From a virus (lineage: Duplodnaviria > Heunggongvirae > Uroviricota > Caudoviricetes): 64,000 nucleotides of DNA. The DNA lies in IMG/VR virus record IMGVR_UViG_2778261510_000005; one strand, 5' to 3'. This document shows, piece by piece, positions 262-52,431 of the stretch (its first letter is position 1; each line of letters begins with the position of its first letter). The notes under the pieces are model-generated. The model was not told where the DNA came from. It ran no database searches and worked only from the letters and a program-made list of their open reading frames with translations. The translations under genes and the position numbers were made by a program.

Positions 262-570
262 TTTCATCATGGAAGCTGTTAACGCTTTGGACCTTGCTGA
301 ACTGATTGAGAGGACTTTGTCAACGTGCCCCAAAAATTCGCCAAACTCAGACATCACTTTAGCAAAACCGCGCCGTGCTTCTTCCTCGGTGGCGTTCATC
401 ACGAAATGTTCAGCACTACGCATACTTTTGACAGGGAACGCAACGGATATTGAGTCAATATCAGGCATCCTGTCGCTCAACTTTACAGTGACAATGACGG
501 CTGGCGACTGAATATTAGTGCTTACAGACAGCACTACATATTTTCCGTCGATGTTGAAATCCTTTCTCAT
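259..570 (-). CDS. Hypothetical protein downstream of cre (103 aa)
   Basis: ORF on same strand as cre, beginning 50 bp after the cre stop; the overlapping plus-strand ORF 200..511 looks less protein-like. No family recognised. Confidence 0.4.
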   Translation of the reverse strand: MRKDFNIDGKYVVLSVSTNIQSPAVIVTVKLSDRMPDIDSISVAFPVKSMRSAEHFVMNATEEEARRGFAKVMSEFGEFLGHVDKVLSISSARSKALTASMMK

Positions 571-2805: not shown

Positions 2806-3657
2806 ATGATAAATTATGTCTACGGCGAACAACTGTACCAGGAGTTCGTCAGCTTCAGGGATCTCTTTCTAAAAAAAGCTGTTGCACGCGCCCAACACGT
2901 TGATGCCGCCAGCGACGGTCGTCCTGTACGCCCGGTTGTCGTTCTACCGTTCAAAGAAACAGACAGCATTCAGGCTGAAATTGATAAATGGACTTTAATG
3001 GCGCGGGAACTGGAACAGTACCCAGACCTCAATATCCCAAAGACTATTTTATATCCTGTGCCTAACATCCTTCGCGGTGTGCGTAAGGTTACGACTTATC
3101 AGACAGAAGCTGTGAACAGCGTCAACATGACCGCTGGCCGCATTATTCATCTGATTGATAAGGATATTCGCATCCAAAAAAGCGCGGGGATCAATGAGCA
3201 CAGTGCGAAATACATAGAGAACCTGGAAGCAACAAAAGAGCTAATGAAGCAGTACCCAGAGGATGAAAAATTCCGTATGCGCGTACACGGCTTTAGCGAA
3301 ACAATGCTGCGCGTCCACTACATTTCCAGTAGCCCTAACTACAATGATGGTAAATCAGTTAGTTACCATGTGCCACTGTGTGGCGTGTTTATCTGCGATG
3401 AAACTCTCCGTGATGGAATTATCATCAACGGTGAATTCGAAAAAGCAAAATTTAGCCTTTATGACTCCATAGAACCGATCATCTGCGACCGCTGGCCGCA
3501 AGCAAAAATATATCGCCTGGCAGATATTGAAAATGTAAAAAAACAAATTGCCATCACTCGCGAAGAGAAAAAGGTTAAGTCAGCCGCATCAGTTACGCGC
3601 AGCCGTAAAACCAAGAAGGGGCAGCCAGTAAACGACAACCCCGAAAGCGCGCAATAA
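2806..3657 (+). CDS. c1: C1 master repressor of lysogeny
   Basis: 283-aa protein starting MINYVYGEQLYQEFVSFRDLFLKKAVARAQHVDA, matching P1 C1 in length and sequence as I remember it; cognate operators are scattered through the window. Confidence 0.93.
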   Translation: MINYVYGEQLYQEFVSFRDLFLKKAVARAQHVDAASDGRPVRPVVVLPFKETDSIQAEIDKWTLMARELEQYPDLNIPKTILYPVPNILRGVRKVTTYQTEAVNSVNMTAGRIIHLIDKDIRIQKSAGINEHSAKYIENLEATKELMKQYPEDEKFRMRVHGFSETMLRVHYISSSPNYNDGKSVSYHVPLCGVFICDETLRDGIIINGEFEKAKFSLYDSIEPIICDRWPQAKIYRLADIENVKKQIAITREEKKVKSAASVTRSRKTKKGQPVNDNPESAQ

Positions 3658-3689
3658 ATTATGCCCGGCATCAACCGGGCATTCTTCCA

Positions 3690-4808
3690 TTATTCAGCCG
3701 CCACCGGTTTTAACAAGCCAGCATCGAGCAGTTTACGCGTCAACCACTGCTGGCCTTTACCCGTTAATTGGGGCGTCAGCCGTATCTGGTAGCCATCTTC
3801 ATCATCCAGCACCACTTCTTTCACCGTGAAATACCCCGCGTTGATGTACTGCTGGAACGGCGCATTTTTACGTCCACCGGACGCTATCAGGATGCCGTTC
3901 TCCCGTAACCAGACAAACAGCGCGTTTTGCTTAAGTCCAACAACCTTTGCAAAATTCCCAATCAGGATCCCTTTAGCTACTGATACCCGGTCGGCAAAAT
4001 CGACTTTAAGAGCGGCGGCCACCAGCTGCTGATTTAGCTGGTGGGCTTTCTGTTCCAGAAGTTGCTTTTGTTCAGCCAGTTCGGCAGCCAGGCGTAGGGC
4101 TTCAGGAAGCGTCTGGGGGATTGCGATCGGTTGCTGTTCTTTTTGTCGGAAGTAGCTGTCTTCCAGTTTTTCAAAGAATGCCCATGCCTGATCGGTTTCG
4201 AGCATTTTAGCGTGGCGGGCTGCGCCGCGTTCTGTCCAGAGGGTGAGTGAGCGAACATTGCGAGCAATTTTTACAGAGTAGTTTAAAGCTACTCTGTGCT
4301 TCAACTCGCGCAATGATTCTCCTTCAACTTTGAAAAAGTGCTTCCCTTCAACAAAGCGTACTTTGTTCTCATGATGATTTTGGCGAATACGGATTGTTTC
4401 TGTCCCATACCCTCTAGCAAGAGTCTCGGTTGTCACTACACGCACTCCCTGCCATTCCAGAACGGGAATTTCATCAGACTGATTCTGAACAACCACCAGC
4501 TCCGATTCCTGAACTGAAGGTGCATGAATTTTTTCTAATTTAACGTTATTTGCTTTCATTCTGTGTGCCTCCTTGCGTGCTTCGGCTGCGACGGTTGCGT
4601 AATTCAGATGCCCCTGTTCGAGCAGGTATTCGCGGATATCAGACAACAGGATACGGTGAACCGCGTGTTTGTCCTTTCTCCGGTAAAGTTGTTTGGTGAT
4701 CATGAAGTAGTTGGCAATAACGCCTGGTATATCCCTGGTACTGATACAGGCAGTGTGCTGTTCAATTGCCTCGATCATCTCTTCACGGGTGACTAATGAC
4801 GTTCTCAT
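3690..4808 (-). CDS. Antirepressor-like protein, second Ant paralog (372 aa)
   Basis: N-terminus and C-terminal domain (IPQTLPEALRLAAELAEQK...GKGQQWL..KLLDAGLLKPVA) are paralogous to Ant at 51394..52431; about 400 bp is near-identical at nucleotide level. Start overlaps the stop of the upstream icd-like ORF. Confidence 0.75.
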   Translation of the reverse strand: MRTSLVTREEMIEAIEQHTACISTRDIPGVIANYFMITKQLYRRKDKHAVHRILLSDIREYLLEQGHLNYATVAAEARKEAHRMKANNVKLEKIHAPSVQESELVVVQNQSDEIPVLEWQGVRVVTTETLARGYGTETIRIRQNHHENKVRFVEGKHFFKVEGESLRELKHRVALNYSVKIARNVRSLTLWTERGAARHAKMLETDQAWAFFEKLEDSYFRQKEQQPIAIPQTLPEALRLAAELAEQKQLLEQKAHQLNQQLVAAALKVDFADRVSVAKGILIGNFAKVVGLKQNALFVWLRENGILIASGGRKNAPFQQYINAGYFTVKEVVLDDEDGYQIRLTPQLTGKGQQWLTRKLLDAGLLKPVAAE

Positions 4809-5026
4809 AGTCCCTCCTGAGCCGAAGCGTTAACAGGGAGGCACCAGTAACTGAGAGAATTGCGCGAATCGGTAGAAAAGCGGGCAGAGAAAATACAGGG
4901 AGCATCCGGAAGCTGAGAACGCGCCTCATCTTCTGTTGGTGCGATAACGAAGTGATAGTGACGTTTTTGGCAGGAGTAAAAGCGCCAGATAAATTCAGGA
5001 TGAGTTGGGGTAGGGATAGTAGCCAT
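4805..5026 (-). CDS. Icd-like small protein (73 aa) of a second immI-type cassette
   Basis: Internal ATG at 5026 with AAGGAGG RBS; MATIPTPTHPEFIWRFYSCQKRHYHFVIAPTEDEARSQLPDAPCIFSARFS parallels Icd at 52428..52649; same 4-nt overlap with the downstream ant. Confidence 0.55.
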   Translation of the reverse strand: MATIPTPTHPEFIWRFYSCQKRHYHFVIAPTEDEARSQLPDAPCIFSARFSTDSRNSLSYWCLPVNASAQEGL

Positions 5027-5190
5027 ATTGGCAGCCTCCTTAGACGTTGGTATGTAACCACCGCAGAAGAGACCAATCTTGCTGGCGGTGGACTGTACGG
5101 AGTTGGCCTTACTGGCGTCCAAGGTAACCAGCCTACCCGAAGGTAGCCCCATACAGCCCACCATTGTAGAGGTGTGCGTGTACGCCGATA

Positions 5191-5216
5191 CAAAAAAAAA
5201 GACGCGAGCGGCGTCT
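5191..5216 (-). terminator. Intrinsic terminator on the minus strand within the leader of the second icd/ant cassette
   Basis: AGACGC-GAGCG-GCGTCT hairpin followed, on the minus strand, by a U9 tract (plus-strand A9 at 5192-5200). Confidence 0.55.
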
Positions 5217-5340
5217 GTATCGCCTTAGACTTAAGCGGGAGGCCAATCCCGGCACCCGTTTTAATGAGGTGCCTGATAAGCATAAACCGAAAATGCCTCA
5301 AGGCGCAAGAGGTCAGGCTCAATGTAACATCGGTAGTTAA
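5217..5340 (-). ncRNA. Candidate c4-like antisense/leader RNA of the second immI-type cassette
   Basis: Lies between a C1 operator (5346-5362) and a terminator (5191-5216), upstream of the icd-like RBS; carries a second copy (5221-5229) of the RBS-region sequence CCTTAGAC (5038-5045), as in the P1 c4 decoy/target layout. Boundaries are guesses. Confidence 0.3.
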
Positions 5341-5345
5341 AAAAC

Positions 5346-5362
5346 ACAATTTATTAGAGCAA
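5346..5362 (-). promoter_or_regulatory. C1 operator upstream of the second icd/ant cassette
   Basis: CAATTTATTAGAGCAAA; 2 mismatches to the operator consensus. Confidence 0.65.
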
Positions 5363-5366
5363 ATAT

Positions 5367-6851
5367 TCATTCATTAAGCCATGCCAGAGCTTCATCAACC
5401 TGCGCTTCGTCTTCGACGCTAAGCACTTCATCCTGGGGAACATAATCCGCCAGCATAGCGAAACAATATGTATCCCAATGGTCTGGTGAGTGCAGGTTGA
5501 GTTTTTTCTTCATATCCTCCTTACTCATCACCTTCCATTGACCTGCGGAGTTAATCCCTACAGGGATTTTCGACGCTTCCTCAATAGTTTCATTACCCTT
5601 ATCCAGTCTCATACGACCAGATTTTACGGCCTCTGCGGCTTGAACGTTGGCATAAGCACGTTTATCAAAGTACAGGCTCTTATCTTCACGGCTATGCATC
5701 TTTTTACCCCAGCGTATACGCTGTACGGTAATACCATAATACTCGTACATCAGATCCGCCGTTGCTTTACCCAGGCCATCGCCGTCTATCGCTATGGTGA
5801 TATTTGGGAATCGCTCAGGATTACATTCTGCGAAAATTTTGGCGGCAAGCTGCGTTTCTGTAACGTCTGTGTATTCCAGCATTCGATAGTTGATTACACG
5901 GCGTTTATTTCGCTGGCCGGACACCATCATGATATTGATAACGGACTTATCCCGTCCCGTACCACCAGCAACGTCCACACATGCAAGCCAGCCCCATCCT
6001 TTGGCAATCTTGACTTTCCGCCGCGTTGCACGTTCAACCTCATCACGTCCAAGAAGGAAGCCATCCTGTGATTTAGGGAATAGGCCGCGTACCTTAATCA
6101 TGTACATAGGGTTATCACGCCCGCCGTACTCCGCCAGCTTCATTTTGATAAATGCTGGCGTTACCAACGGTGATTCCTCACTGTTAAGCGTGATCGCCGT
6201 ATAAACGCCATCAGGGTTACCAGGACGCTTGGCCAGTTTATGGTGAGTATCGTAGAAATAGCCGCTTGGGCGTGTAGGCTGTGACAGTAATAAGATGCGG
6301 TTATCCTGTCCGGTAAGAGCACCAGTGATGATACCGAAAGCTCTATCACTGACACCGGAGGCTTCATCGATAATATACAGAAGATGATCTGCGTGTTCAC
6401 CGGCGAGAGCTTCTTCACTTCCCAGACGAAAGCCCTTCGGTACTACAGTCCATACACCTTTACCAGTAACCTCATAGAAAGCGGTTTCTGTCAGAACAAA
6501 ATAATCAGCAAGCCATGGAAAACGGCTGGTGGCAGTAGCCCAGTTTATCTTGATGTACTTGAATATACCGGTCATTACCTGCTGAATTTTGTTCGCAACG
6601 ATAATGGCGCGGGCACCGGGATACATGATTATGAACAACATGATCATGATAGAAGTCATGTCTGATTTCCCGGTACCGTGACCAGACGAAACAGATGTCT
6701 TGCTACCCTGTTCCTGCACAGACTCAATAATCAGATCCTGCTGCCAGGTAGGTGTTTTGCCGAACAAAACATCAGCGGCAGCAATCCAGTCATAACGATA
6801 TAGCGCCACCAGCTCGCGCCAACGTGGATCCGTTACGCAACTTCTGGCCAT
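5367..6851 (-). CDS. pacB: Terminase large subunit PacB
   Basis: 494-aa protein directly downstream of pacA and overlapping its stop; size and position match P1 PacB. Confidence 0.85.
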
Positions 6852-8044
6852 TAATCATCATCCCCGTATAGCTTGCGGGTAACTTCTTCGTCTTCCTCCT
6901 CGTCTTCGTCCAGGTCTTGTTCCAGCCATGGGTCGTTTGATACACCTTCAGTATCAACATCTCCATAACCGCCTGTATCAACGATATCGGCGATTTCTTC
7001 CCTACGCTGCTCAATCCACAATGCGGCATCGGCGCGGCGGTTGGCGGCCCGTTCTCGCGCAACTTTGTCCAGATCTTCAAGAGAAGGGCCACCGACGGCT
7101 GTTTGCCTTTCCTCATCATCGGTATTGGTCTTAGGAGCACGCAGATCGGCTTTGATTTGCTCCAGCATCAGGGGCGGCACTTTCCCGCCATGCGCCTCGA
7201 TGAATTCAGCTGCTTCCAGCACTGACCAGTTATTTTCACGCTTTCGTTCGTATGCCAGCTTAACAATGCCAGCTTGCCCCATAGACAAAGCGTGCTTTTC
7301 CGCCTCCCGGCTTTCTTTTCGATAGTTATTCCGGATGCTGTAAATGGTGTTGATCAGGCTGCTTATCTGCGCGGAACAGCTGTTTAGCATGCTCGCGATA
7401 CGGTATTCAGGCGGAGTACCTTCATCATCGTCTTTTTGCTGATCGCGCATTTCCTGCACCAGGCGAATACACGTATCCCTGGCGTTCTCCAGCATAAGGA
7501 GGTGAGAAAGAGACTTTTCAAGAAGAGTGGTTTCCAGAACATCGGCCCCGGACCGACGCAACATAGCGCGCGCGGCCTTCCGCGCTTCAACGTTATCTAT
7601 CAGGTAATCGCCAGCTTCGAATTCAAAGCGTTCACCATCATCATCCAGGGTGTCGCGTTCCAGGCGATCACGTAAGGTCCGGTGGGCGCGGGTGATCACG
7701 TCATGATCATCTGAACGATCATTTATGCGCTTATTTTGGCGCTTCGCATTCTCGACTGCAGCACTGACAACGGCATTAACTCTCTGTTTTTCCGCTATTT
7801 CAGCCGCAATATGATCACCTGCATGTTGATCATTAGAGTGATCAATGATCATGCTTTTTAGTGGCTTCCTGACTGGCTTATTTGGCTTGCGGCTGTCCGC
7901 AGTCCTGGTGTCTTCTTTGAAGGCACGGAGATAACGACGTGCGGTATTAGGGTTAAGATTAAACTCGGCGGCATACTGTGCGATGGTGTAACCACCATCT
8001 CGCGCCAGGCGAGCAAAATTCTTCTTGTGATCGTCCCAGGTCAC
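6851..8044 (-). CDS. pacA: Terminase small subunit PacA (contains the pac site)
   Basis: 397-aa protein; N-terminus [39 protein letters not shown]; the coding sequence contains clustered TGATCA hexamers typical of P1 pac. Confidence 0.88.
7690..7855. other. pac packaging site (two clusters of TGATCA hexamers with Dam GATC sites)
   Basis: TGATCA at 7693, 7704 (plus GATC 7717) and at 7812, 7827, 7839, 7846, about 100 bp apart inside pacA. Confidence 0.75.
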
Positions 8045-8129
8045 TTATGCTTCCTTTCGTAAAAACTCTTTTTGACGCGAGGGTAACGAAAGTCACATGT
8101 CAAAAGGCCCGGAACGGGCAAGCAATCAA

Positions 8130-8582
8130 TCAGATACGTGCGGATGTGGCATTACCGTAATGACGGTGCTGACGGGCCACCTTATTGAAAAGTTGACGCG
8201 CCATTACCCAAGGCAGGTGCTCCCGGCGTTCCTTTTCGTCCTGCGTCATATAGAGTTCGTTCTGGAGTTTTTCATCAAACCGGCGCGGAGCGCGGCTGCG
8301 GCGAAAGAATTCAGGATTCAGAGAGTGGATCTGAAATCTACGTGGGCGTGTACTGTCATCAATCAAAACAGACGAATACTTAGACACAGCGATAGCCTTT
8401 AAGCGCAGATAAACATCGCGCTTATCGACATCCAGATGCGGGTATTCCTTTTCAAGGATTGCTGCGAGTTCTTTCGCTGATAGAAGAGATTTAGTGCGAA
8501 TCATGTAATCCGCAATCTCATACGATGTAATTCGTGAGTGATTTATTTCCATGAAGTGGCGTCCCTGCCAGTTAAGTAACAT
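8130..8582 (-). CDS. lpa: Putative late promoter activator (Lpa/gp10-like), 150 aa
   Basis: Assigned by size and position immediately upstream of pacA, as I remember for P1; not recognised by sequence. Confidence 0.5.
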   Translation of the reverse strand: MLLNWQGRHFMEINHSRITSYEIADYMIRTKSLLSAKELAAILEKEYPHLDVDKRDVYLRLKAIAVSKYSSVLIDDSTRPRRFQIHSLNPEFFRRSRAPRRFDEKLQNELYMTQDEKERREHLPWVMARQLFNKVARQHRHYGNATSARI

Positions 8583-8670
8583 CCTGTCACCTACTGATTA
8601 GCCCATGTCAACTAATCAACGACGAATATAATACCCTAGATTAAAGAAATAGCAATACATCAGAGCAATT

Positions 8671-9714
8671 TTATCTAACGCTCGACGAGTGACTTGTGAT
8701 AGCGCCGACTCCAAGCGCGTAATCAAAGAACAATCGTTGATGCATCGCCAGCCTGCCGTGCGTCTTCTCCCAATTATCGCGGTCACGCTCAATATCACGC
8801 TGGCATGACTGGCACAGAGGAATTGCGTAAATGTCATGCGCGCATAATCGACTATGACGAACGATATAAGGCGTAATGTGAGCGCCAGCTCCCGCCGCTC
8901 CACACCCACAGCATGGACGGGAAGCAACAAAGTCCATGTACTCAGGTAATTTTAGCGATTGCAGTTTTGGTATTTTGAAATGCGCCATGCCAGGGTCGGA
9001 GTCAACATCCACAGGGCATACTTTTGCACGCATCGGCGCGGCGCGTTCTTCCATCATCTGAACATATGCTGTAGCGCGATCGTCATACGGGCGAATATCC
9101 GCCTCTTTCAGAGGTCCGCTATCCTGCGTTGCGGCTTTCATCTTATTTATTGATATACGGCAGACTTCTTCCGGCATCAGGTGCATCATGTTGCGCATGA
9201 AAGCCCACCAGCACAGCTCCTGAATACTTAAATCATGGCTATTTGAAAGGCCCATTTCCTGACGGGCGACATCCAGTATCCAGTTAACGCGATTATTGTG
9301 CAGCGTTTCTTTCAGCTCATTAAAACCACGCATCCGGTAATGGTTATCGTGATGCCAGCACAACAACACCGCGCTATTGTCTCGTTCAGCGTGGACAATA
9401 TGGTTGTCACACCAACTACGATCTGCGGCCTGGCATTGCCCCTCTTTCCTACGCAACCACGCCACCAGCGCGTCAATTCCACCAATACGGCGAAACAGTT
9501 CATCGCTGTTAAAAAACGGCTGCAACGCCTCATTTGTTGCCATGGTTTGCTCGGAAACAACGAGGCCGTCGTCCATGTGCTCGATTAACTCACGCGGCAC
9601 CGGCTCCATAATAAATTTACGGCCAGCCTCCACCAGCTTTCTGACTTCCTGATCCACTTTGAATGTGGCGACGCCAAGCTCTTTTTGTACAAAGGGAGTA
9701 ATTACGGCTTTCAC
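8671..9714 (-). CDS. Hypothetical cysteine-rich protein (347 aa), possible Zn-binding C-terminal motif
   Basis: C-terminus [42 protein letters not shown]; RBS AAAGGTG preceded by CCAATCA. Confidence 0.6.
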
Positions 9715-9740
9715 ATCACACCTTTCATCACTGATTGGGT

Positions 9741-9920
9741 TTATCTGCTGCCCGGCATTCTCTGTTTAAGCACAACCATTTCCTGACGGCATAACACAGC
9801 AATAGCGGTCCTGGCACCAATTTGCTTACCAACCAGGTATTGCTTTACCTCGCGGCGACTCACGCCATCAAGAAGCATCTTTAACGCTTCACGGGACAAT
9901 TTGTTGTATTTGCGTGCCAT
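9741..9920 (-). CDS. Small basic protein (59 aa from the ATG after the doc stop), possible helix-turn-helix
   Basis: [40 protein letters not shown]...; its start abuts the doc stop. Confidence 0.45.
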
Positions 9921-9924
9921 TAAT

Positions 9925-10305
9925 CTACTCCGCAGAACCATACAATCTACGTAACGTGTCGGCGACAGAAGATACAGATATCTCTCCGGTCGCAGCCCCT
10001 ACGGTAAGGTCTGCCAGTTCAGGTGAATCAAATACCTGCACCCCGTTACGGCGTAGAAATAACAGCGCACTGTTTAGCGCGGTACGCTTATTGGCATCAT
10101 TGAATATATGCCCTCTCGCTGTAGCCACTAGGTAGGTGGCGGAGACTTCGAAAAGGTCGGTGATCTCTTCGTAGGCAACTCTGGCCTGAACTCTCCCGAT
10201 AATGGCCTCTGCCCTACCCGGATCTGACATTCCCGGCAGGCCGCCGTAGCGGTTTATATTCGCATCATGAAGCGCAATAAGTTCTTCCGGTGATATATGC
10301 CTCAT
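9925..10305 (-). CDS. doc: Doc toxin (death on curing)
   Basis: 126 aa, [78 protein letters not shown]; matches P1 Doc as I remember it. Confidence 0.95.
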
Positions 10306-10526
10306 TATCGGTTAACCAGTTCCTTGTTGGTGGAGTCCAGGGTGTCAAACAGGGATGCAAATTCAGCATCCAGCGCCGCTTTTTTGTAGGCTTCGAAAGT
10401 AGCCTTGCTGACAATTACTGCTGGCTCACGGCCTCTGCGGGTGATTTCAACCTCTTCCCCGGCTTCAACATTGTTGAGCACTTCAGAAAGGTTGCCGCGC
10501 GCGGTACGGAAGTTAATGGATTGCAT
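10305..10526 (-). CDS. phd: Phd antitoxin (prevent host death)
   Basis: 73 aa from the second [76 protein letters not shown]; stop overlaps the doc start. Confidence 0.95.
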
Positions 10527-10532
10527 AAACAC

Positions 10533-10558
10533 CTCGTGTACTCGTTATGTGTACACAA
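10533..10558. promoter_or_regulatory. phd-doc operator region (tandem GTGTAC palindromic sites)
   Basis: GTGTAC at 10535-10540 and GTGTACAC at 10549-10556, just upstream of the phd start. Confidence 0.55.
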
Positions 10559-10702
10559 TTATAAACTTCACAGGCATAAAGCACCAGCACTTTGCGGCTT
10601 AACAAACCTCTAGGCAGGTCATTCGTAGCCTAATGTCCGAACTGCTAAAGCATCCAAGTTGCTGTAGAATCACCGCCAATTACATAAGCCTGAAATAAGT
10701 GG

Positions 10703-12265
10703 ATGAAAATGACAAGTATTCAACAACGTGCAGAGCTTCATCGTCAAATCTGGCAAATTGCTAACGATGTCAGAGGTTCTGTCGATGGATGGGATTTTAA
10801 GCAATACGTTCTGGGCGCACTTTTCTACCGTTTTATCAGCGAAAATTTTTCCAGTTATATGGAAAATGGTGATGACAGCATCTGTTATGCGGCACTTGAT
10901 GACGGCATTATTACTGATGACATTAAAGACGATGCCATCAGAACCAAAGGCTACTTCATCTACCCCAGTCAGCTTTTCTGCAACGTAGCGGCGAAAGCAA
11001 ATACCAATGACAGACTGAATGCAGATTTAAATAGTATCTTCGTTGCTATCGAAAGCTCTGCTTACGGTTACCCTTCAGAAGCTGACATCAAAGGTTTGTT
11101 TGCTGATTTCGATACAACCAGTAACCGCCTGGGGAATACCGTTAAGGATAAAAATGCCCGCCTGGCCGCGGTTCTGAAAGGGGTTGAAGGGTTAAAGCTT
11201 GGCGACTTTAACGAACATCAGATTGACCTGTTCGGCGATGCCTATGAGTTCCTGATTTCTAACTATGCCGCGAATGCCGGTAAGTCCGGCGGCGAGTTCT
11301 TTACACCGCAGCACGTCTCTAAGCTGATTGCACAACTGGCTATGCACGGGCAGACCCACGTTAACAAAATCTACGACCCGGCAGCAGGCTCCGGTTCGCT
11401 GTTGTTGCAGGCTAAAAAACAGTTTGATGACCATATCATCGAAGAAGGTTTTTTTGGTCAGGAAATCAACCATACGACCTATAACCTGGCACGTATGAAC
11501 ATGTTTTTGCACAACATCAACTACGACAAGTTTGATATCAAGCTGGGCAATACGCTGACTGAACCGCACTTCAGAGATGAAAAACCGTTTGATGCCATCG
11601 TTTCTAACCCGCCGTATTCGGTGAAATGGATTGGCAGCGATGACCCGACGCTGATTAACGATGAGCGTTTTGCCCCGGCTGGCGTCCTGGCCCCCAAATC
11701 AAAAGCTGACTTCGCGTTTGTATTACATGCGCTGAACTATCTTTCGGCCAAAGGTCGCGCCGCGATTGTCTGCTTCCCGGGTATTTTTTACCGTGGCGGC
11801 GCAGAGCAGAAAATCCGTCAGTATCTGGTCGACAATAACTATGTCGAAACCGTGATTTCACTCGCACCGAACCTGTTCTTTGGCACCACCATTGCTGTAA
11901 ACATTCTGGTGCTGTCTAAACATAAAACGGATACCAAAGTTCAGTTTATTGACGCCAGCGAGCTGTTCAAAAAAGAAACTAACAACAATATCCTGACCGA
12001 TGCCCATATCGAACAGATTATGCAGGTATTTGCCAGCAAGGAAGATGTTGCCCATCTGGCGAAATCTGTTGCGTTTGAGACTGTTGTCGCGAATGACTAT
12101 AACCTGTCGGTGAGCAGTTATGTTGAAGCGAAAGATACTCGCGAAATTATCGATATCGGTGAGCTGAATGCTGAGCTGAAAACCACGGTCAGCAAAATCG
12201 ACCAGTTGCGCAAAGATATTGATGCGATTGTGGCTGAAATTGAAGGCTGCGAGGTGCAGAAATGA
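10703..12265 (+). CDS. hsdM: Type I restriction-modification N6-adenine methyltransferase subunit HsdM
   Basis: 520 aa with NPPY motif ([11 protein letters not shown]) and AdoMet-binding region ([10 protein letters not shown]); same length as EcoR124-family HsdM. Confidence 0.93.
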
Positions 12266-13431
12266 GCGAGATGAGTTATCTGGAAAAATTGCTGGATGGG
12301 GTTGAAGTTGAGTGGTTGCCATTGGGGGAAGTCTCAGCCTTAAGAAGAGGCAGAGTTATGTCAAAGGGATATTTAACTGAAAATTTTGGCCCATATCCTG
12401 TCTATAGCTCTCAAACTGCAAATAATGGGAAAATAGGTTCTATCAATACCTTCGATTTTGATGGCGAATATATAAGCTGGACAACAGATGGCGCAAATGC
12501 AGGCACTGTGTTCTATCGAACAGGTAAATTTTCAATAACTAATGTTTGCGGCCTGATTACATTAAAAAGTAAATACTCATTAATCTACAAATTTCTGTTT
12601 TACTGGCTAACAATAGAAGCCAAAAAACATGTTTACTCAGGAATGGGAAACCCCAAGTTAATGAGTCATCAGGTTGAAAATATACCTGTACCAATCCCCT
12701 GCCCGGATAATCCGGAAAAATCCCTTGCCATCCAGTCTGAAATCGTTCGGATTCTGGATAAATTTACTGAGCTTACAGCAGAGCTTACAGCAGAGCTTAC
12801 AGCAGAGCTTAGCATGCGTAAAAAACAATACAACTACTATCGCGACCAGTTGTTGAGTTTTAAAGAGGGTGAGGTTGAGTGGAAGACTTTGGGAACATTT
12901 GCAGATAATTTTGATTCTCTTAGAAAACCAATAACTAGTGGATTAAGGGAGACTGGAAATATTCCCTATTATGGTGCGTCAGGCATTGTTGATTACGTAA
13001 AAGATTATATTTTTGATGATGACCTGTTATTAATTTCTGAAGATGGTGCGAATCTTATTGCAAGAAATACCCCTATAGCTTTTAGCATTAGCGGTAAAAC
13101 GTGGGTGAATAATCATGCTCATGTACTTAAATTCAAAAACTACACTGAACAAAAATTTGTTGAATATTACTTAAACAATATCAATCTTACGCCGTACATA
13201 TCAGGAGCAGCCCAGCCAAAGCTAAATAAGAAAAACTTAGAAAGTATCCGTATTCCTAATCCATCACTAAAAGAAAAAGAGCGGATTGTTACTATTCTGG
13301 ATAAATTCGACACCCTGACTAACTCCATCACCGAAGGTCTCCCGCGTGAAATCGAGTTACGCCAGAAACAATACGAGTACTATCGTGATTTACTGTTCAG
13401 TTTCCCAAAACCTGAAACAGTCAGTAATTAA
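12262..13431 (+). CDS. hsdS: Type I restriction-modification specificity subunit HsdS (type IC-like, TAEL repeat)
   Basis: 389 aa, overlaps the hsdM stop; central conserved region carries [12 protein letters not shown] flanked by two target-recognition domains. Confidence 0.9.
12769..12810 (+). repeat. 12-bp tandem repeat GAGCTTACAGCA x3.5 encoding (TAEL)3 in the HsdS spacer region
   Basis: Perfect tandem copies at 12769-12780, 12781-12792, 12793-12804 plus a partial copy. Confidence 0.95.
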
Positions 13432-13552
13432 TTGACCATTGCTACCGACCGGGCCACCTTAACATCCGGTCTGTATATAGACTATTTTTTACACGCTGGA
13501 AGTCGCCCTTAAAGCTCTTCCGGCCCTTGCCAGACGGCACAAAGGATGCGCT

Positions 13553-16500
13553 ATGACTCATCAGACATACACCATTGCTGAATCCAATAACTTTATCGTT
13601 CTTGATAAGTACATCAAAGCTGAGCCAACAGGCGACAGCTACCAGAGCGAATCGGACCTGGAACGTGAACTGATTCAGGACCTGCAAAATCAGGGCTATG
13701 AATTTATACCCGTAAAATCACAGTCAGCGATGCTGGCCAACGTTCGGGAACAGCTTCAGAGCCTCAATGGTGTGATGTTTAATGACAGCGAGTGGCGGCG
13801 CTTCACGGAGCAGTATCTGGACAACCCCAGCGATGGTATTCTGGATAAAATCCGTAAAATCCATATCGACTATATTTGCGACTTTATTTTTGATGACGAG
13901 CGTCTTGAGAACATCTATCTGATAGATAAAAAGAATCTCATGCGCAATAAGGTGCAGATTATCCAGCAGTTTGAACAGGCAGGTTCTCACGCTAACCGTT
14001 ATGACGTAACTATCCTGGTTAATGGCTTGCCACTGGTGCAAATCGAACTAAAAAAACGCGGGGTGGCGATTCGTGAGGCTTTCAACCAGATACATCGTTA
14101 CAGTAAAGAGAGTTTTAACAGCGAAAATTCCCTGTTTAAGTATCTGCAACTGTTTGTCATTTCTAACGGCACCGATACCCGTTATTTTGCCAACACGACA
14201 AAGCGCGATAAAAACAGTTTTGACTTCACCATGAACTGGGCTAAAGCAGACAATACACTGATTAAAGACCTCAAAGACTTTACCGCTACCTTTTTCCAGA
14301 AACATACTCTGCTTAATGTTCTGGTGAACTACAGCGTTTTTGACAGCAGTCAGACACTACTGGTAATGCGACCGTACCAGATTGCCGCCACCGAGCGCAT
14401 TCTGTGGAAAATTAAGAGTTCCTTTACAGCGAAGAACTGGTCAAAACCGGAAAGCGGTGGGTATATCTGGCACACTACCGGTTCTGGTAAAACCCTCACC
14501 AGCTTTAAAGCCGCGCGTCTGGCAACAGAGCTGGACTTTATTGATAAAGTCTTCTTCGTGGTCGACAGGAAAGACCTCGATTACCAGACCATGAAGGAAT
14601 ATCAGCGTTTTTCGCCAGACAGCGTCAACGGCTCGGAAAATACCGCAGGACTTAAACGAAATCTGGACAAGGACGATAACAAAATTATCGTCACTACTAT
14701 TCAGAAACTCAATAACCTGATGAAAGCAGAAAGCGACCTGCCTGTATATAATCAGCAAGTGGTGTTTATATTTGATGAATGCCACCGCAGCCAGTTTGGA
14801 GAAGCGCAGAAAAACCTGAAGAAGAAATTCAAACGCTATTATCAGTTTGGTTTTACCGGTACCCCTATTTTCCCGGAAAACGCCTTAGGCTCAGAAACGA
14901 CCGCCAGCGTATTTGGTCGTGAATTGCATTCGTATGTAATTACCGATGCGATTCGTGACGAAAAAGTGCTCAAATTCAAGGTGGACTACAACGATGTGCG
15001 GCCACAGTTTAAGTCTTTAGAGACAGAAACTGACGAGAAAAAACTAAGTGCGGCTGAAAATCAGCAGGCGTTTCTTCATCCCATGCGTATTCAGGAAATC
15101 ACGCAATATATTCTGAATAATTTCCGCCAGAAAACTCACCGTACCTTCCCTGGCTCAAAAGGTTTTAATGCTATGTTGGCAGTGAGCAGCGTGGATGCCG
15201 CGAAAGCCTATTATGCGACGTTTAAACGGTTACAAGAAGAAGCCGCTAATAAATCGGCTACCTATAAACCGCTGCGTATTGCGACAATCTTCTCCTTTGC
15301 CGCCAATGAAGAACAAAATGCCATTGGTGAAATTTCCGATGAAACTTTTGATACCAGCGCAATGGACAGCAGTGCTAAAGAGTTTCTGGACGCTGCAATT
15401 CGTGAATATAACAGCCATTTTAAAACTAACTTTAGCACCGACAGTAACGGTTTTCAGAACTACTATCGTGATTTAGCCCAGCGGGTTAAAAATCAGGATA
15501 TCGATCTGCTAATTGTCGTGGGGATGTTCTTAACCGGCTTCGATGCTCCAACATTGAACACGCTATTCGTCGATAAAAACTTACGTTTTCACGGCCTGAT
15601 GCAGGCATTTTCCCGCACCAACCGCATTTATGACGCCACTAAAACCTTCGGTAATATCGTCACTTTCCGGGATCTGGAACGCTCAACTATTGATGCCATA
15701 ACGCTGTTTGGTGACAAAAACACCAAAAATGTGGTGTTAGAAAAGAGTTATACAGAGTATATGGAAGGCTTTACTGATGCTGCTACTGGTGAAGCTAAAC
15801 GCGGCTTTATGACAGTAGTTTCAGAACTGGAACAACGGTTCCCTGACCCTACCAGTATTGAAAGTGAAAAAGAGAAGAAAGACTTCGTTAAACTGTTTGG
15901 CGAATACCTGCGTGCCGAGAACATCCTGCAAAACTATGATGAATTTGCCACGCTGAAAGCCCTGCAACAAATCGATCTTAGCGATCCTGTTGCGGTAGAA
16001 AAATTCAAAGCAGAACATTATGTGGATGATGAAAAGTTCGCTGAATTGCAAACAATTCGTCTCCCTGCTGATCGCAAGATTCAGGATTATCGTTCTGCCT
16101 ATAACGATATTCGCGACTGGCAGCGCCGTGAGAAAGAAGCTGAGAAAAAAGAGAAATCAACCACTGACTGGGATGACGTGGTTTTTGAGGTTGATTTGCT
16201 GAAGTCTCAGGAAATAAACCTGGATTATATCCTTGGACTGATTTTCGAACACAACAGACAAAATAAAGGCAAGGGCGAAATGATCGAAGAGGTCAAACGC
16301 TTAATTCGTTCAAGCCTGGGGAACCGTGCTAAAGAGGGCCTGGTGGTCGATTTTATTCAGCAAACGAACCTGGATGATTTACCGGACAAAGCCAGCATCA
16401 TTGACGCATTCTTTACGTTTGCTCAACGCGAACAGCAACGTGAAGCAGAAGCATTGATAAAAGAAGAAAATCTCAATGAAGATGCAGCAAAACGCTATAT

Positions 16501-47689: not shown

Positions 47690-47715
47690 TAAAGCTCCTA
47701 CGGGAGCTTTTTTGT
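47690..47715 (+). terminator. Rho-independent terminator (AGCTCC-TACG-GGAGCT + T6)
   Basis: Perfect 6-bp stem followed by TTTTTT. Confidence 0.7.
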
Positions 47716-47754
47716 GCTTAAATTATGCCGGTATAGCGAAATTTTGAGCATATT

Positions 47755-48051
47755 ATGGAAATTGATTTTTCATACTCTCCTGAAACGATAGAACGAAGAT
47801 TCGAAATAATTGGATGCAAAACTATTTCAGAGGAGCATTATTGGATTCTCTATGATGCCAATACATGGTTATGTGCCTTAGCAGAATGTCGGCCATCGTT
47901 ATGTGCAGGGGAGGGAGGACTTCGACATAAGGTGCTGGCTACACTTGAAGTGAACACGTTACGATATTGGTGTGTCGAAATACTTAGGGATAACAAAGAA
48001 TTACATTTATTATTGCTGAATAAGTGTGCGCCTCTGCGCAGGAAAGCATAA
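47755..48051 (+). CDS. Moron: hypothetical Cys-rich small protein (98 aa) bracketed by terminators
   Basis: Stand-alone ORF between terminators at 47690-47715 and 48180-48220; AT-rich; no family recognised. Confidence 0.5.
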   Translation: MEIDFSYSPETIERRFEIIGCKTISEEHYWILYDANTWLCALAECRPSLCAGEGGLRHKVLATLEVNTLRYWCVEILRDNKELHLLLLNKCAPLRRKA

Positions 48052-48179
48052 GAAAACCCAACCGCCATACTGGAATTATCAGAAGAATATGTGCGGAAAG
48101 TTATAGCTAGCTATTGAAAAGCTAAAGTAGATCGGTTAGATTTACCTTACTCATCTACCATGCGTAGAAAGAGCGATCG

Positions 48180-48220
48180 AACCCGATACATAGCAATATG
48201 TGTCGGGTTCAGCTTTTTTA
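48180..48220 (+). terminator. Terminator-like hairpin (ACCCGATACAT-loop-ATGTGTCGGGT) followed by T-run
   Basis: 11-bp stem with one mismatch, then TTTTTT at 48214-48219. Confidence 0.5.
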
Positions 48221-48697
48221 TGTCCCAAGTGCTCTTTTTCTGCTTTGTTTGAGTGTTCTGATTTTACTGTCATAGGTTACAACATAGGCTGTTTTGAGAA
48301 GCCAATAGTCTCTACGTGCGGATAGCACAACAACGTAGTTTTCACACTCGTTCCAGATTACCCACTCTTCAGTTGGTCCTCGTCTTTCAGACCAACATGA
48401 TATATCGCAATGGTCATAATTCCTTATCATATGCGCGATCCAGCGGATCCGCTTACACCGTTCAAGATCAGGTATTCGTTCTTCTTCTATTTTTCCCTCT
48501 GATACTAAATGCCAAAATCCGAACTCTTTCCCATCATATTCCGGTGAATAACGTAATCGAACAGGGAGACCCTTAAACGTTATATTAGAGATTAAAATAT
48601 CTTCTCTAACAACATCATATACATCGTCTATATACTCTTGCCAACTTCCATTGAAGTACAATAAATCTGGCATTTGAAGCATCAGCGAGCCTCCCAC
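48218..48697 (-). CDS. Hypothetical protein (159 aa), distal gene of a two-gene accessory operon; possible HEPN-like Rx5H motif
   Basis: Overlaps the upstream gene by 16 nt; contains KRIRWIAH (Rx5H); AT-rich; no family confidently recognised. Confidence 0.6.
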   Translation of the reverse strand: MGGSLMLQMPDLLYFNGSWQEYIDDVYDVVREDILISNITFKGLPVRLRYSPEYDGKEFGFWHLVSEGKIEEERIPDLERCKRIRWIAHMIRNYDHCDISCWSERRGPTEEWVIWNECENYVVVLSARRDYWLLKTAYVVTYDSKIRTLKQSRKRALGT

Positions 48698-49386
48698 ACG
48701 AAAATATTAAATTTACTTTCTGTTGGAAGAGTGCTTTTTAGTAACTCCCTGTTTGTATGTGATTTTATCCTGTTTATGACTTGGATTTTTCCCGCGTTGC
48801 TATTCATTCCTCGATGAACGTAGCCTAACGCACCAATGAAAAGATCCGTTAGCTGCAATTGTTGCACTTCATGAGATCGTATATGTTGAATTCTGTTTAT
48901 CGACTCATGATTGTAATCATAGCGATCATTGTGAAGAACTCCTCTTAATTTCTCAATTTTTTCAATACCTAAAGTATCTTTTATATCTAGGTAGATATTG
49001 TATGTGTTGTTACTTTCTATTATGTTTTTTAAGACATAAAAAAACATCTTATAATAGAAAGTATTGTGATCTTGATGGAATCGAGCATGGTCCAGTTGCT
49101 CTTTATCAGGAACAACAACACCTCTAAAGCGCAATGCTGGGTTGCTGAAGAAGTAATCTACGACCTCTAAGTAAAATTCAACTTTGGACGCAGATACTTT
49201 AGTCCACTTGATTTCGAAATCAGGTTTTAAATTGTGTTTTAATTTTAATCCCTTGATGTCTCTAGCAATTTTTTTTGTGATAGTGCCAGGACACCAAAGC
49301 GCACCCAATACCATGACTTTATTATGATCATTTAGTAGGTGACAGGATTCATCGCAGAATACATTAAATGTTCTTCGGTTCAACAT
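48682..49386 (-). CDS. Hypothetical protein (234 aa) with N-terminal FCDES motif (possibly DUF3800-like), proximal gene of the accessory operon
   Basis: MLNRRTFNVFCDESCH... recalls the DE motif of DUF3800-type proteins (recollection only); very AT-rich coding sequence. Confidence 0.65.
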   Translation of the reverse strand: MLNRRTFNVFCDESCHLLNDHNKVMVLGALWCPGTITKKIARDIKGLKLKHNLKPDFEIKWTKVSASKVEFYLEVVDYFFSNPALRFRGVVVPDKEQLDHARFHQDHNTFYYKMFFYVLKNIIESNNTYNIYLDIKDTLGIEKIEKLRGVLHNDRYDYNHESINRIQHIRSHEVQQLQLTDLFIGALGYVHRGMNSNAGKIQVINRIKSHTNRELLKSTLPTESKFNIFVWEAR

Positions 49387-49554
49387 GTTAACTCCACTTA
49401 TTGTTAGGTAGAATTGTCCGTTAGTTGTTTATTAATTGCAATAATGGGACGTTCTGATTTGCTAACTACGTCATCTTACCAGGACGCCTATGAGTTTTCC
49501 TCATGGCAAACTAGAGGTGTTGAAAGTATGCATGGTTATAATTAGAGCAATCTA

Positions 49555-50400
49555 TCACCCTCTGAATCCTACCGGTATACCCCATTGTTCGTTATCTTTA
49601 TTTTTGGCTAATACCGCATTAAGTGCTTCGTTTACCGTCATGCAATGCGGTAGATTATCGAAGTTTGATATCCAGCCAATATCAGGAGAACGCTTGTTCT
49701 TCAGGTAAGCATATTTCCGCGCTGCCGCCTCTACTTTCTGCTTGAACTCATGTTTTTGAGCGCGTTTTTTGGATAACCGCAGATTGTCAGCCTTTGCTTT
49801 TGCCTCAGCGATCCATGAAGTCAGTTTTTTGAGGCTGGTCGTTCCGGTACCGCCGGAAACTGATCTTTTTGTTTTTTTAATTTGTGACTTCTTATTCTTT
49901 ATTGCCACGTCATCCTGACAGGGGGAGGGGGTATCATTTTGACATGGGGGTGTGGATAAAAAATCAAATAAAGCCAATGTCTTAGCGAGAACAGCTTTAA
50001 CCTTGGTTGCGGCTGAAGAGATCTTTAATTTGCTTTCAATCAGCGCGTTTTTAGCGTGTTGTGCGAAGGCCAAAAAGGATGGTGTAAACCGGTACAGGTT
50101 AGCGCGGCGTTCACGGTGATCGCCGATAACAATCTCTACCGACAGGATTCCTTTGTTTACAGCTTCACGGAATGCGCGAACGACGGTTGATTGGCTATAA
50201 CCAGTTTCTGCCGCGATCATGCGGTGAGGCTTGTGAATGAAGTATTCACTGGTTGTTGCCGCGAGATTTGCACATTGCGACAGGATATGCCCGGCGCTAC
50301 GGGATAGACCGGAGTGTGTTACAAAGCAGGCCAATTCATAGCCAGAAAAAGTAAAATCGCTCATCGTTATACAGCTCAGGAAAGTGACTTTAGCCAGCAT
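49555..50400 (-). CDS. repL: RepL lytic replication initiator (contains oriL)
   Basis: 281 aa including MSDFTFSGYELACFVTHSGLSRSAGHILSQCANLAATTSEYFIHKPHRMIAAETGYSQSTVVRAFREAVNKGILSVEIV; immediately downstream of kilA, as in the P1 kilA-repL operon. Confidence 0.88.
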   Translation of the reverse strand: MLAKVTFLSCITMSDFTFSGYELACFVTHSGLSRSAGHILSQCANLAATTSEYFIHKPHRMIAAETGYSQSTVVRAFREAVNKGILSVEIVIGDHRERRANLYRFTPSFLAFAQHAKNALIESKLKISSAATKVKAVLAKTLALFDFLSTPPCQNDTPSPCQDDVAIKNKKSQIKKTKRSVSGGTGTTSLKKLTSWIAEAKAKADNLRLSKKRAQKHEFKQKVEAAARKYAYLKNKRSPDIGWISNFDNLPHCMTVNEALNAVLAKNKDNEQWGIPVGFRG

Positions 50401-51299: not shown

Positions 51300-51316
51300 A
51301 AATTTATTAGAGCAAA
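51300..51316 (-). promoter_or_regulatory. C1 operator upstream of kilA-repL (Op53-like)
   Basis: AAATTTATTAGAGCAAA, 16/17 match, 70 bp upstream of the kilA start. Confidence 0.8.
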
Positions 51317-51393
51317 TTTTTCTAACTCGATCCAGATCGGGTTGGATGATCTGCTCAGAAACCTGCCAGTTTGCTGGCAGGTTTTTTCTTTTG

Positions 51394-52431
51394 TTAACCT
51401 ATTGCTACTGGTTTTAACAAACCAGCATCAAGTAGCTTGCGAGTTAACCACTGCTGGCCTTTACCCGTTAATTGGGGCGTCAGCCGTATCTGATAGCCAT
51501 TTTCATCATCCAGCACCACTTCTTTCACCGTGAAATACCCGGCGTTAATGTACTGCTGGCGCGGTACGTTTTTGCGCGCACCAAAAGCCATGAGAATGCC
51601 GTTCTGGCGCAACCATGAGAAAAGGGCGTTTTGCTTAAGTCCAACGACCTTTGCAAAGTTACCGATCAGGATTCCATTAGCCACTGATACCCGGTCGGCA
51701 AAATCGACTTTAGGTGCTGCGGCCACCAGCTGTTGTTCCAGATGCATTTTCTGTTCTGCCAACTCGGCAGCCAGGCGTAGGGCTTCTGGTAATGTTTGGG
51801 GGATCGATGGGGTAGGGGAGTTTGCCTGCTGCAATTCTTCCAGTTTGTCGATCAGCGAACGGCGGACAGCTTTTGATTCGCGCGCGGCGACTCGCAGGGC
51901 TTGTTTGTAGGTCATGGTTATGACAAGCATTGATGTTTTGTTCATTTTTTCCACTACACTTTTTGTGTAGTGCTCACCATCAAGCTCATCGAGTATTTTT
52001 TCGATGAATTTGTTGTTCCGAACCTCTGGTTCCCCACATAACTTACGCGCTTCATTGACCATCTTTAACAGTGTCTGGCTGTCGATTGTGTCTCCAGTGT
52101 TGGAGATAACATTCACAGTTGGTGATGGCGTAGCTAAAGCAACAGGTGCTGGTTTTTCAACATTCAAATTATTACCGGTCATTCTGCGCGCCTCCTTTCT
52201 CATTTCTGCTGCCACCGTTGCGTAACGTAGACGTCCTTGTTCAATCAAATAATCCCTGATCTCGGCTATCAGTAGCCTGTTGATCACAGCCTTATCTGTT
52301 CGGGTATAAAAACGCCTGGTTATCATGAAATAGTTGGCAATTGCGCCGGGGATCTCCCGTGTCGGCATACAGGCAGTATGCAGGGCGATCGCTTCGGCTA
52401 TGTCATTACGGGTGACGAGAGGTTTTTTCAT
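51394..52431 (-). CDS. ant: Antirepressor Ant (ant1/ant2)
   Basis: 345 aa; start overlaps the icd stop; placed between the c4 region and kilA-repL as in P1 immI. Confidence 0.82.
   Translation of the reverse strand: MKKPLVTRNDIAEAIALHTACMPTREIPGAIANYFMITRRFYTRTDKAVINRLLIAEIRDYLIEQGRLRYATVAAEMRKEARRMTGNNLNVEKPAPVALATPSPTVNVISNTGDTIDSQTLLKMVNEARKLCGEPEVRNNKFIEKILDELDGEHYTKSVVEKMNKTSMLVITMTYKQALRVAARESKAVRRSLIDKLEELQQANSPTPSIPQTLPEALRLAAELAEQKMHLEQQLVAAAPKVDFADRVSVANGILIGNFAKVVGLKQNALFSWLRQNGILMAFGARKNVPRQQYINAGYFTVKEVVLDDENGYQIRLTPQLTGKGQQWLTRKLLDAGLLKPVAIG

Follow-up and report, generated by a model that had tools for sequence, protein, structure and literature searches.

A structured small RNA gene beside rlfA and rlfB in a P1-like phage-plasmid and in bacterial restriction-modification loci

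A stretch of 64,000 nucleotides (nt) from a virus of the class Caudoviricetes (IMG/VR record IMGVR_UViG_2778261510_000005; hereafter the window, at its full length) was found to carry, in a block of low GC content, the rlfA, rlfB and pmgF genes of bacteriophage P1 (annotated in AF234173; rlfA and rlfB are named rapA and rapB in P7) and, between pmgF and rlfB, a gene for a small structured RNA. This RNA gene is the third part of an rlfAB cassette that occurs in many bacterial phyla, and it had gone unannotated until now: no RNA gene is annotated between pmgF and rlfB in the P1 record, and the candidate defence system PDC-M04 of PADLOC, whose models both window proteins match, is defined as two proteins, with the small RNA outside its models. 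A reading of the window from sequence alone had put the block forward as an undescribed system; this does not hold, as the genes are those of P1, the pair is catalogued as PDC-M04 and the region has been published.

Ever since the P1 genome was deposited, rlfA and rlfB have appeared in its annotation and in that of the P1 segment used in P1-derived artificial chromosome (PAC) vectors, their function being a guess from position only ('possibly associated with lytic replication', with 'putative morphogenetic function' for pmgF). To this are added here the linked structured RNA, a quantified tie to type I restriction-modification (R-M) genes and the presence of the same RNA, standing alone, in phage tRNA arrays. 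The results bear on the role of DUF3800 proteins, widespread as accessory nucleases in retron and CRISPR loci and associated with a dozen orphan RNA motifs, on the purpose of the many genes embedded in R-M operons, and on why phages carry small non-tRNA RNAs within tRNA arrays; Escherichia coli with P1 and Bacillus subtilis with phi3T are genetically tractable for all three questions.

A small RNA gene convergent with rlfB

The first trace of the RNA was non-coding DNA downstream of rlfB that was conserved in unrelated loci. By iterated nhmmer searches an element of 40-64 nt was located in 82-83 of 84 loci; it follows the rlfB stop codon immediately, and the median distance from that codon to the end of the RNA core is 54 nt. 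On the strand opposite rlfB the element reads 5'-A(G/U)CUCAUCUACCAUGUGUAGAAGGAGUAACGA-(GC-rich hairpin)-UUCAGCnUUUUU-3'. Folding with RNAalifold gave a 5' hairpin and a terminator hairpin (see Table 1 for coordinates), with compensatory changes in 13 of 17 pairs. Standard pairs filled 95.2% of the paired cells, compared to 78.7% after shuffling (0/500 shuffles reached the observed value) and at most 46.5% with slid partners, and the covariation score was 0.54 versus 0.21.

The strand was assigned by counting G.U pairs, of which there were 146 on the strand opposite rlfB against 16 on the coding strand. A reading of the element as the terminator or 3' untranslated region of rlfAB was rejected, since the coding strand has recurrent C.A mismatches and 84.7% standard pairs, and since the U-run and the -10 and -35 boxes all lie on the other strand. 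The layout of the promoter upstream of the RNA (TTGa, 17 nt, TAnnnT, with a purine approximately 7 nt downstream) is shared by 82 loci from different phyla. In the window the U-run extends to 48219 and overlaps the rlfB stop codon; together with its hairpin it shows that the second of two intrinsic terminators described in the sequence-only reading, both of which are present as hairpins, is the 3' end of the small RNA gene.

A covariance model was built from 73 sequences and searched against 1.32 Mb, giving 87 matches of 44-84 bits, with everything else scoring 22.8 bits or less. All 87 are antisense to rlfAB and they include P1 and loci left out of the model; 86 lie beside the cassette and the 87th is a second copy upstream of rlfA in locus L040. 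The sole match in the window was at 48140-48231 (+), with 60.1 bits and an E value of 1.5e-18, and no match was obtained in four P1-like alleles without rlfAB.

The second copy in L040, an Acetothermia contig, lies just upstream of rlfA at 417-499 (-) and may indicate tandem cassettes. In a subgroup of eight loci from Marinobacter and others (L028, L046, L052, L058, L074, L086, L097 and L098) the loop of the 5' hairpin carries an insertion of 10-20 nt which resembles an extra mini-hairpin, and the model still scores 44-63 bits there. Two structural ideas were dropped on inspection: a closing stem GCUGA/GAGCU, with a hammerhead-like reading of GAUGAG, showed no covariation in the alignment, and mimicry of an anticodon stem-loop did not suit a 5' hairpin whose loop has neither U33 nor a purine at position 37.

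Genes of the DUF3800 family, to which rlfA belongs, are accompanied by eleven different structured RNA motifs, several of them with terminators and in either orientation (Weinberg et al. 2017; PMC5737381). The present RNA resembles these motifs (I-XI) in being a structured small RNA with a Rho-independent terminator beside a DUF3800 gene; it differs in that it matches none of the Rfam DUF3800 models (I, VIII, IX and others) and is also found in phages without a DUF3800 gene. No Rfam match to the small RNA was obtained from 6 kb of the window at E values up to 5 or from 181 nt at E values up to 10, a motif outside Rfam being still possible, nor was there a match at the gathering score in six cassette loci; Rfam 15 holds these DUF3800 motifs, and the same scan detected DUF3800-VIII elsewhere.

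The RlfA and RlfB proteins and their restriction-modification context

RlfA is a member of Pfam DUF3800 (PF12686; 53.1 bits against a gathering cut-off of 21, E value 7.6e-14, profile positions 1-148 of 149). Its FCDES motif, noted earlier as possibly DUF3800-like, proved to be a real signature of the family, in which D12 and E13 never vary; the same is true of D134 and D181, and Q178 of the QxxD motif is kept in at least 90% of sequences. The protein, with its acidic motifs intact, thus fits the published description of DUF3800 by an N-terminal DE and a C-terminal QxxD motif (PMC7736814). The structure model is a compact RNase H2-like fold, the structural neighbours of which include PIWI and Cas9 RuvC domains. 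Homologues number more than 5,000, with 48-61% identity in Bacteroidota, Chloroflexota, Nitrospirota, cyanobacteria and others. In PADLOC, RlfA matched the PDC-M04A model (PDLC04353, E value 2.2e-95, residues 5-233 of 234), and the adjacent RlfB, encoded on the same strand, matched PDC-M04B (PDLC04355, E value 1.1e-51); PADLOC and Pfam searches had been suggested in the sequence-only reading.

The rlfB open reading frame (ORF) as called runs from a GTG codon and encodes 159 amino acids (48218-48697, minus strand), as had been read before. The start better supported by the sequence is the ATG at 48682, giving 154 amino acids as in P1; the rlfA stop codon runs into this ATG (TGATG), and a GGAGG stands upstream of it. 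This stop/start overlap of 1 nt agrees with the translational coupling already proposed for the pair. The RlfB family is large (1,754 clusters at 50% identity), and His58 is its sole invariant residue, with F56, W57, R69, R75, R78 and W81 kept in at least 90% of members. The structure model is a compact globular alpha/beta protein (predicted local distance difference test, pLDDT, 91.7). An earlier assignment to HEPN proteins from an Rx5H string was rejected: the string is present (R78 to H84), but H84 varies, the invariant histidine is H58 in an FWH motif, and the model is alpha/beta, not all-helical.

RlfB gave no match in Pfam or NCBIfam, nor to PDB by sequence or by profile; Pfam searches with 61 family members were also empty, and no Pfam domains were found in the N-terminal extensions that some RlfB-like proteins carry. 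Foldseek returned no significant match for the RlfB model, with HigB1 and colicin D recurring among the top matches. As a lead only, RlfB may be an RNase of the RelE/colicin-D type (BECR fold). The PHROG label of RlfB is 'replication protein', which presumably just echoes the P1/RefSeq annotation.

The genomic context of this horizontally mobile cassette was examined in a sample of 80 species, each represented by a single locus, that spans at least 12 phyla. In all 78 loci with enough sequence to judge, rlfA is succeeded by an RlfB-type gene of the same orientation, and the two genes mostly overlap. Type I R-M genes flank 38 of the 80 loci, on the same strand in 37, and in 16 they lie on both sides, so that the cassette is embedded among them. 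Immediately upstream (-1) stands HsdS in 17 of 73 loci, and immediately downstream (+1) ResIII/HsdR in 14 of 71; in six loci the end of the upstream hsdS reaches 4 nt into the rlfA ORF (rlfA being called from its longest start). Further neighbours are GmrSD, Mrr, Abi_C, TIR and SEFIR proteins and integrases. The pair is the first cargo gene after the integrase in an E. coli integrative and conjugative element (ICE), and it is also found in a RhuM/SymE island at tRNA-Sec beside a P4-like satellite and in an R-M island linked to transfer-messenger RNA (tmRNA). In Algoriphagus pacificus (L010/L011, locus 4183-15617) hsdMS and hsdR enclose the cassette in a dense defence island, with a gene for a 502-amino-acid reverse transcriptase directly before the cassette and a Piwi (prokaryotic Argonaute) gene 1.3 kb after it.

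The PDC systems are 145 untested candidates, put forward by 'guilt-by-embedding' (Payne et al. 2024, bioRxiv) on the strength of homologues located within BREX, DISARM or type I R-M loci, and the type I R-M embedding of PDC-M04 was reproduced independently here; PDC-M04 is not mentioned by name in any paper of the library searched. The suggestion that the block carries defence cargo is therefore plausible from genomic context, although the system is, as PDC-M04, not undescribed. A nuclease-type module between co-transcribed R-M genes recalls PrrC of EcoprrI, an anticodon nuclease silenced by a type I R-M system. Such embedding is seen in the 16 loci flanked on both sides (the genes adjoin in 38 of 80), whereas the P1 copy lies between repL and pmgF; moreover, the PrrC proteins (ABC-ATPase plus anticodon nuclease) are unrelated and PrrC has no partner RNA. 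No homology to PrrC or RloC was found in a PADLOC scan at E values up to 0.1, which returned only the PDC-M04 models.

Stand-alone RNA copies in phages and a possible conflict module

The exact 24-nt core of the RNA was present in 116 viral contigs, and the counts of stand-alone copies refer to the 80 loci returned from these. It had been expected that the RNA would occur only with rlfAB, which was wrong: 18 of the 80 viral loci have rlfA or rlfB anywhere, 62 have no RlfA- or RlfB-type ORF in the sequence examined, and none of the 109 proteins neighbouring the stand-alone RNA is a DUF3800 protein. The covariance model matched all 79 viral loci searched (29-70 bits). Of 50 distinct contexts without rlfAB, 14 have tRNA genes no more than 500 nt from the RNA, and all of these tRNA genes are co-oriented with it; the other neighbours are ordinary phage genes, with a Tad2-like anti-defence protein and a TROVE/Ro-like protein among them. 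Named phages with an unannotated core are Bacillus phage phi3T, relatives of SPbeta (where it occupies the gap upstream of yonK), and one phage each of Geobacillus and Vibrio. In phi3T (KY030782; L219, locus 2228-2943) the core lies in an intergenic gap of approximately 700 nt between phi3T_55 and yonK, and an SPbeta-like viral contig (L109, approximately 11101-11236) carries two tandem copies.

The chances are, in our estimate, about even that the rlfAB cassette is a toxin-antitoxin (TA)-like conflict module acting in abortive infection, exclusion or addiction, with activities, a toxicity and a role of the RNA that we infer as follows. RlfA would be an RNase H2-like DUF3800 nuclease with intact acidic motifs; RlfB, which is small, fast-evolving and coupled to RlfA, has an invariant histidine and conserved arginines and may be an RNase. 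The third part, an RNA of approximately 70 nt made constitutively from its own convergent promoter and ending in a terminator that overlaps the rlfB stop codon, would restrain the nuclease pair, either through binding to one of the proteins or through an effect on the rlfAB mRNA at its 3' end. Infection, or loss of the element, would upset this balance, and the nucleases would then cut RNA (or RNA:DNA hybrids) and growth would stop. Within a type I R-M operon the cassette would form a second line behind restriction, as PrrC does, and the stand-alone phage copies of the RNA would be decoys that silence the nucleases. Phages are known to escape ToxIN by carrying RNAs that mimic its antitoxin. 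The full scenario, in which a nuclease controlled by an RNA antitoxin backs up type I restriction and excludes competitors of P1, and in which phi3T/SPbeta relatives and many phages with tRNA arrays carry RNA decoys, is on balance unlikely; if true, it would add to immunity a new three-part RNA-protein class, matched by a widespread phage counter-measure, in one of the best-studied phages.

Decay of the pair offers a supporting hint for the TA-like reading in its asymmetry, RlfB being lost and RlfA kept. In Methylomonas sp. 11b (L012/L013, approximately locus 8699-9190) a single nonsense codon replaces W57, the Trp of FGFWH, with the rest of RlfB intact and RlfA and the small RNA retained; the codon is identical in two independent assemblies. 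RlfB is frameshifted in one E. coli ICE, and loss of RlfA alone was not seen in good assemblies. Clusters of truncated RlfA and RlfB proteins were also considered as a sign of such asymmetry and proved uninformative, one rearrangement removing both genes and the others coming from indel-ridden assemblies.

Type I TA systems such as txpA/RatA and bsrG/SR4 resemble the cassette in that their small RNA has a promoter of its own, is convergent with the protein gene and overlaps the 3' end of that gene, but their toxins are small hydrophobic membrane peptides, whereas RlfA and RlfB have 234 and 154 amino acids and are modelled as globular. With type III systems (ToxIN) the cassette may share the pairing of an RNase-type protein with a structured RNA; the ToxIN RNA consists of tandem repeats and lies upstream and co-oriented, whereas that of the cassette is single-copy, downstream and convergent. 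RNA-antitoxin systems have one protein and the rlfAB cassette has two. Retron type VII (reverse transcriptase, non-coding RNA and a DUF3800 effector) is similar in joining an RNase H2-like DUF3800 protein to a non-coding RNA with a predicted role in defence, yet its DUF3800 protein lacks the Q of QxxD that RlfA has, and the cassette has no reverse transcriptase, the gene just upstream in Algoriphagus not being general.

Overlapping genes with a convergent small RNA, an architecture like that of TA systems, might also be expected of a pure addiction module, stabilising the P1 plasmid, an ICE or an R-M operon by post-segregational killing and having no anti-phage role. The cassette is indeed carried on plasmids and ICEs, one locus adjoins another TA pair (MazE/PIN) within the same R-M operon, and Hok/Gef occupies the same P1 hotspot in other elements. 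We nevertheless regard pure addiction as unlikely, given that P1 already has phd-doc, that in about half of the loci the cassette forms an integral part of a chromosomal type I R-M operon, and that the phage-borne RNA copies are easier to explain as counter-defence; the neighbourhoods with R-M, GmrSD, Mrr, Abi_C and TIR genes are typical of defence islands and weigh in the same direction.

A different division of labour, in which RlfA is a nuclease that depends on or processes the small RNA as guide, scaffold or substrate, much like RNase-H-fold enzymes partnered by a non-coding RNA encoded nearby, and in which RlfB is an accessory subunit, appears decidedly unlikely, because the unpaired parts of the RNA are almost invariant and leave no variable guide segment, the RNA also occurs in phages with no DUF3800 protein nearby, and RlfA, at 234 amino acids, has no obvious RNA-binding extension. 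It would, on the other hand, account for the RNase H fold of RlfA and its PIWI and RuvC neighbours, for the unusual conservation across phyla of both RlfA and the RNA core, and for the association of DUF3800 genes with many different structured RNAs (PMC5737381) and their presence in retron type VII and in CRISPR V-A2 and VI-F loci. Adjacency to a known DUF3800 RNA is a further point in its favour: in viral contig L113, which has no rlfAB, the new RNA (673-755, plus strand) is followed after 44 nt by an Rfam DUF3800-VIII RNA (799-865, plus strand, 56.4 bits), and the two may be functionally connected.

Several points weigh against a conflict module as set out above. Toxicity, nuclease activity and phage defence are all predicted, from sequence, models and context, and other PDC candidates failed when they were tested (PMC12409345). 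The RNase-fold assignment of RlfB is weak, and conservation is far stronger in RlfA than in RlfB, an unusual pattern for a pair with RlfB as toxin and RlfA as accessory protein. Simple cis-antisense control does not need a near-invariant RNA sequence, and no trans pairing of the 5' part of the RNA with the initiation regions of rlfA or rlfB was found (mean z scores of -0.41 and -0.11, respectively, compared to shuffles). The decay of RlfB alone is known from two cases, and in one of them a sequencing error in a homopolymer could be the cause; the stand-alone phage RNA could serve a function unrelated to the cassette. Finally, the location of rlfAB behind repL and a C1 operator, and its grouping with early lytic genes, fit expression in the lytic phase at least as well as a defence expressed in the lysogen.

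The exchangeable block of P1-like phage-plasmids

The block is the lowest-GC stretch of 1.8 kb in the window (bottom 0.1% of sliding windows), with a GC content of 0.377 compared to 0.473 for all 64 kb, so that the AT-rich island of the sequence-only reading is real, and the coordinates given for it (47690-49554) were essentially correct. Its edges are sharp: by blastn against the alternative alleles L002, L003, L017 and L018, homology of these four P1-like genomes with other cargo stops at 47713/47714 and resumes at 49540/49541. The left junction lies just beyond the bplB terminator, where the backbone homology of all alleles ends at 47713, and the right junction is 14 nt past the repL stop codon, within the annotated C1 operator Orlf, which itself begins 3 nt after that codon. 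The features of the block and its flanks are given in Table 1.

Table 1. Position of the low-GC block, its features and its flanking features in the window
Feature	Position	Strand	Basis or remark
Intrinsic terminator after bplB	47691..47710	+	Terminator scan
Exchangeable low-GC block	47714..49540 (1,827 bp)		Holds pmgF, small RNA gene, rlfB and rlfA
pmgF, 98 amino acids, 6 Cys	47755..48051	+	Annotated PmgF in P1
Sigma-70 promoter of small RNA (TTGAAA, 17 nt, TAGATT)	48114..48142	+	Promoter scan
Small RNA gene, ~70 nt, convergent with rlfB	~48149..48219	+	nhmmer, RNAalifold, covariance model
Small RNA 5' hairpin, near-invariant core CUCAUCUACCAUGCGUAGAAAGAG	48150-48173	+	
Small RNA terminator hairpin, after linker	48179-48210	+	Terminator scan
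rlfB, 154 amino acids, small alpha/beta protein, PADLOC PDC-M04B	48218..48682	-	
rlfA, 234 amino acids, DUF3800, PADLOC PDC-M04A	48682..49386	-	RNase H2-like fold
Predicted promoter PrlfA (TTGCAA, 17 nt, GACAAT)	49413..49441	-	P1 annotation; sequence identical in window
C1 repressor operator Orlf (former Op55), ATTGCTCTAATTATAAC	49535..49551	-	P1 annotation; window has the P1 sequence
repL	49555..50400	-	ORF list, terminator scan, P1 annotation

At the nucleotide level the block is 96.5% identical to P1, 97.4% to P7 and 99.8% to the phage-plasmid JL22, and the order of the genes and their flanks are alike in P1 and P7. The region is one of eight low-GC variable regions of P1-like phage-plasmids (variable region 5; PMC9603915), and its replacements were described earlier (PMC6906374). 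The alignment to P1-family genomes that had been suggested along with the sequence-only reading hence confirmed a variable hotspot which was already in print. Among plasmids in PLSDB the rlfAB block was found in 101 of 680 that carry bplB (approximately 15%). At the same site other elements have different cargo (Hok/Gef, an Ail/Lom outer-membrane protein, an IS605 transposase or unknown ORFs).

The rlfAB pair had been described as a convergent operon. This is true with respect to pmgF only; the pair is co-directional with kilA-repL and immediately downstream of it. As rlfAB lies directly behind repL and its origin oriL with no terminator between, as P1vir RNA-seq groups rlfA and rlfB with early lytic and replication genes, and as RlfA has an RNase H2-like fold, an accessory role in lytic replication (the 'rlf' idea), with RlfA processing transcripts or R-loops at oriL and so priming or resolving replication, must also be weighed. 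We consider it very improbable. In a genome-wide CRISPR interference screen rlfA, rlfB and pmgF were non-essential for lytic growth of P1, and rlfAB also for the formation of plaques (PMC10695390), and rlfAB is absent from approximately 85% of the P1-like plasmids that keep bplB, with repL retained in the four alternative alleles examined. In the 80-species sample and the other loci examined, the cassette is found in R-M operons of chromosomes, in ICEs and in islands, where no neighbouring repL was noted, and a replication role explains neither RlfB nor the RNA. That the cassette is dispensable for P1, being non-essential and present in some 15% of P1-like plasmids, is a point in favour of the conflict module.

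The cysteine-rich ORF which had been taken for a stand-alone moron was found at the expected place as pmgF. PmgF is confined to the P1 family (two clusters only among 5.8 billion proteins) and is similar to the N-terminus of a plus-strand ORF of 198-210 amino acids at the same site in SJ46 and RCS47 (43% identity over 65 amino acids, E value 4e-16 for SJ46). PmgF is therefore a short divergent allele of a gene native to this site in other P1-like phages, and not an independent moron.

PrlfA fell below the threshold of the promoter scan run here, and its site rests on the P1 annotation and sequence identity. Upstream of kilA two sub-threshold Rfam matches, to RT-6 RNA (51923-51974, minus strand, 21.8 bits, E value 0.23) and to ctRNA_p42d (51357-51394, plus strand, 21.1 bits, E value 0.56), are probably due to chance. 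The C1 operator consensus ATTGCTCTAATAAATTT has 15 matches in the window at up to 3 mismatches, against 0.37 expected, one of them being the kilA/repL operator at 51300-51316 (minus strand); this excess fits the immunity network of the P1 family. Orlf is split by the right breakpoint of the block, its first 11 nt (ATTGCTCTAAT) being common to all alleles and its last 6 nt variable, and different cargo alleles may therefore differ in C1 control at this site. In one E. coli genome (GCA_052418375.1; L099, locus 2905-5426) the P1-like homology ends inside rlfA, at window position 48910, and in place of the remainder of the block there is sequence that encodes, on the opposite strand, a large toxin of the CNF1/ToxA_N type.

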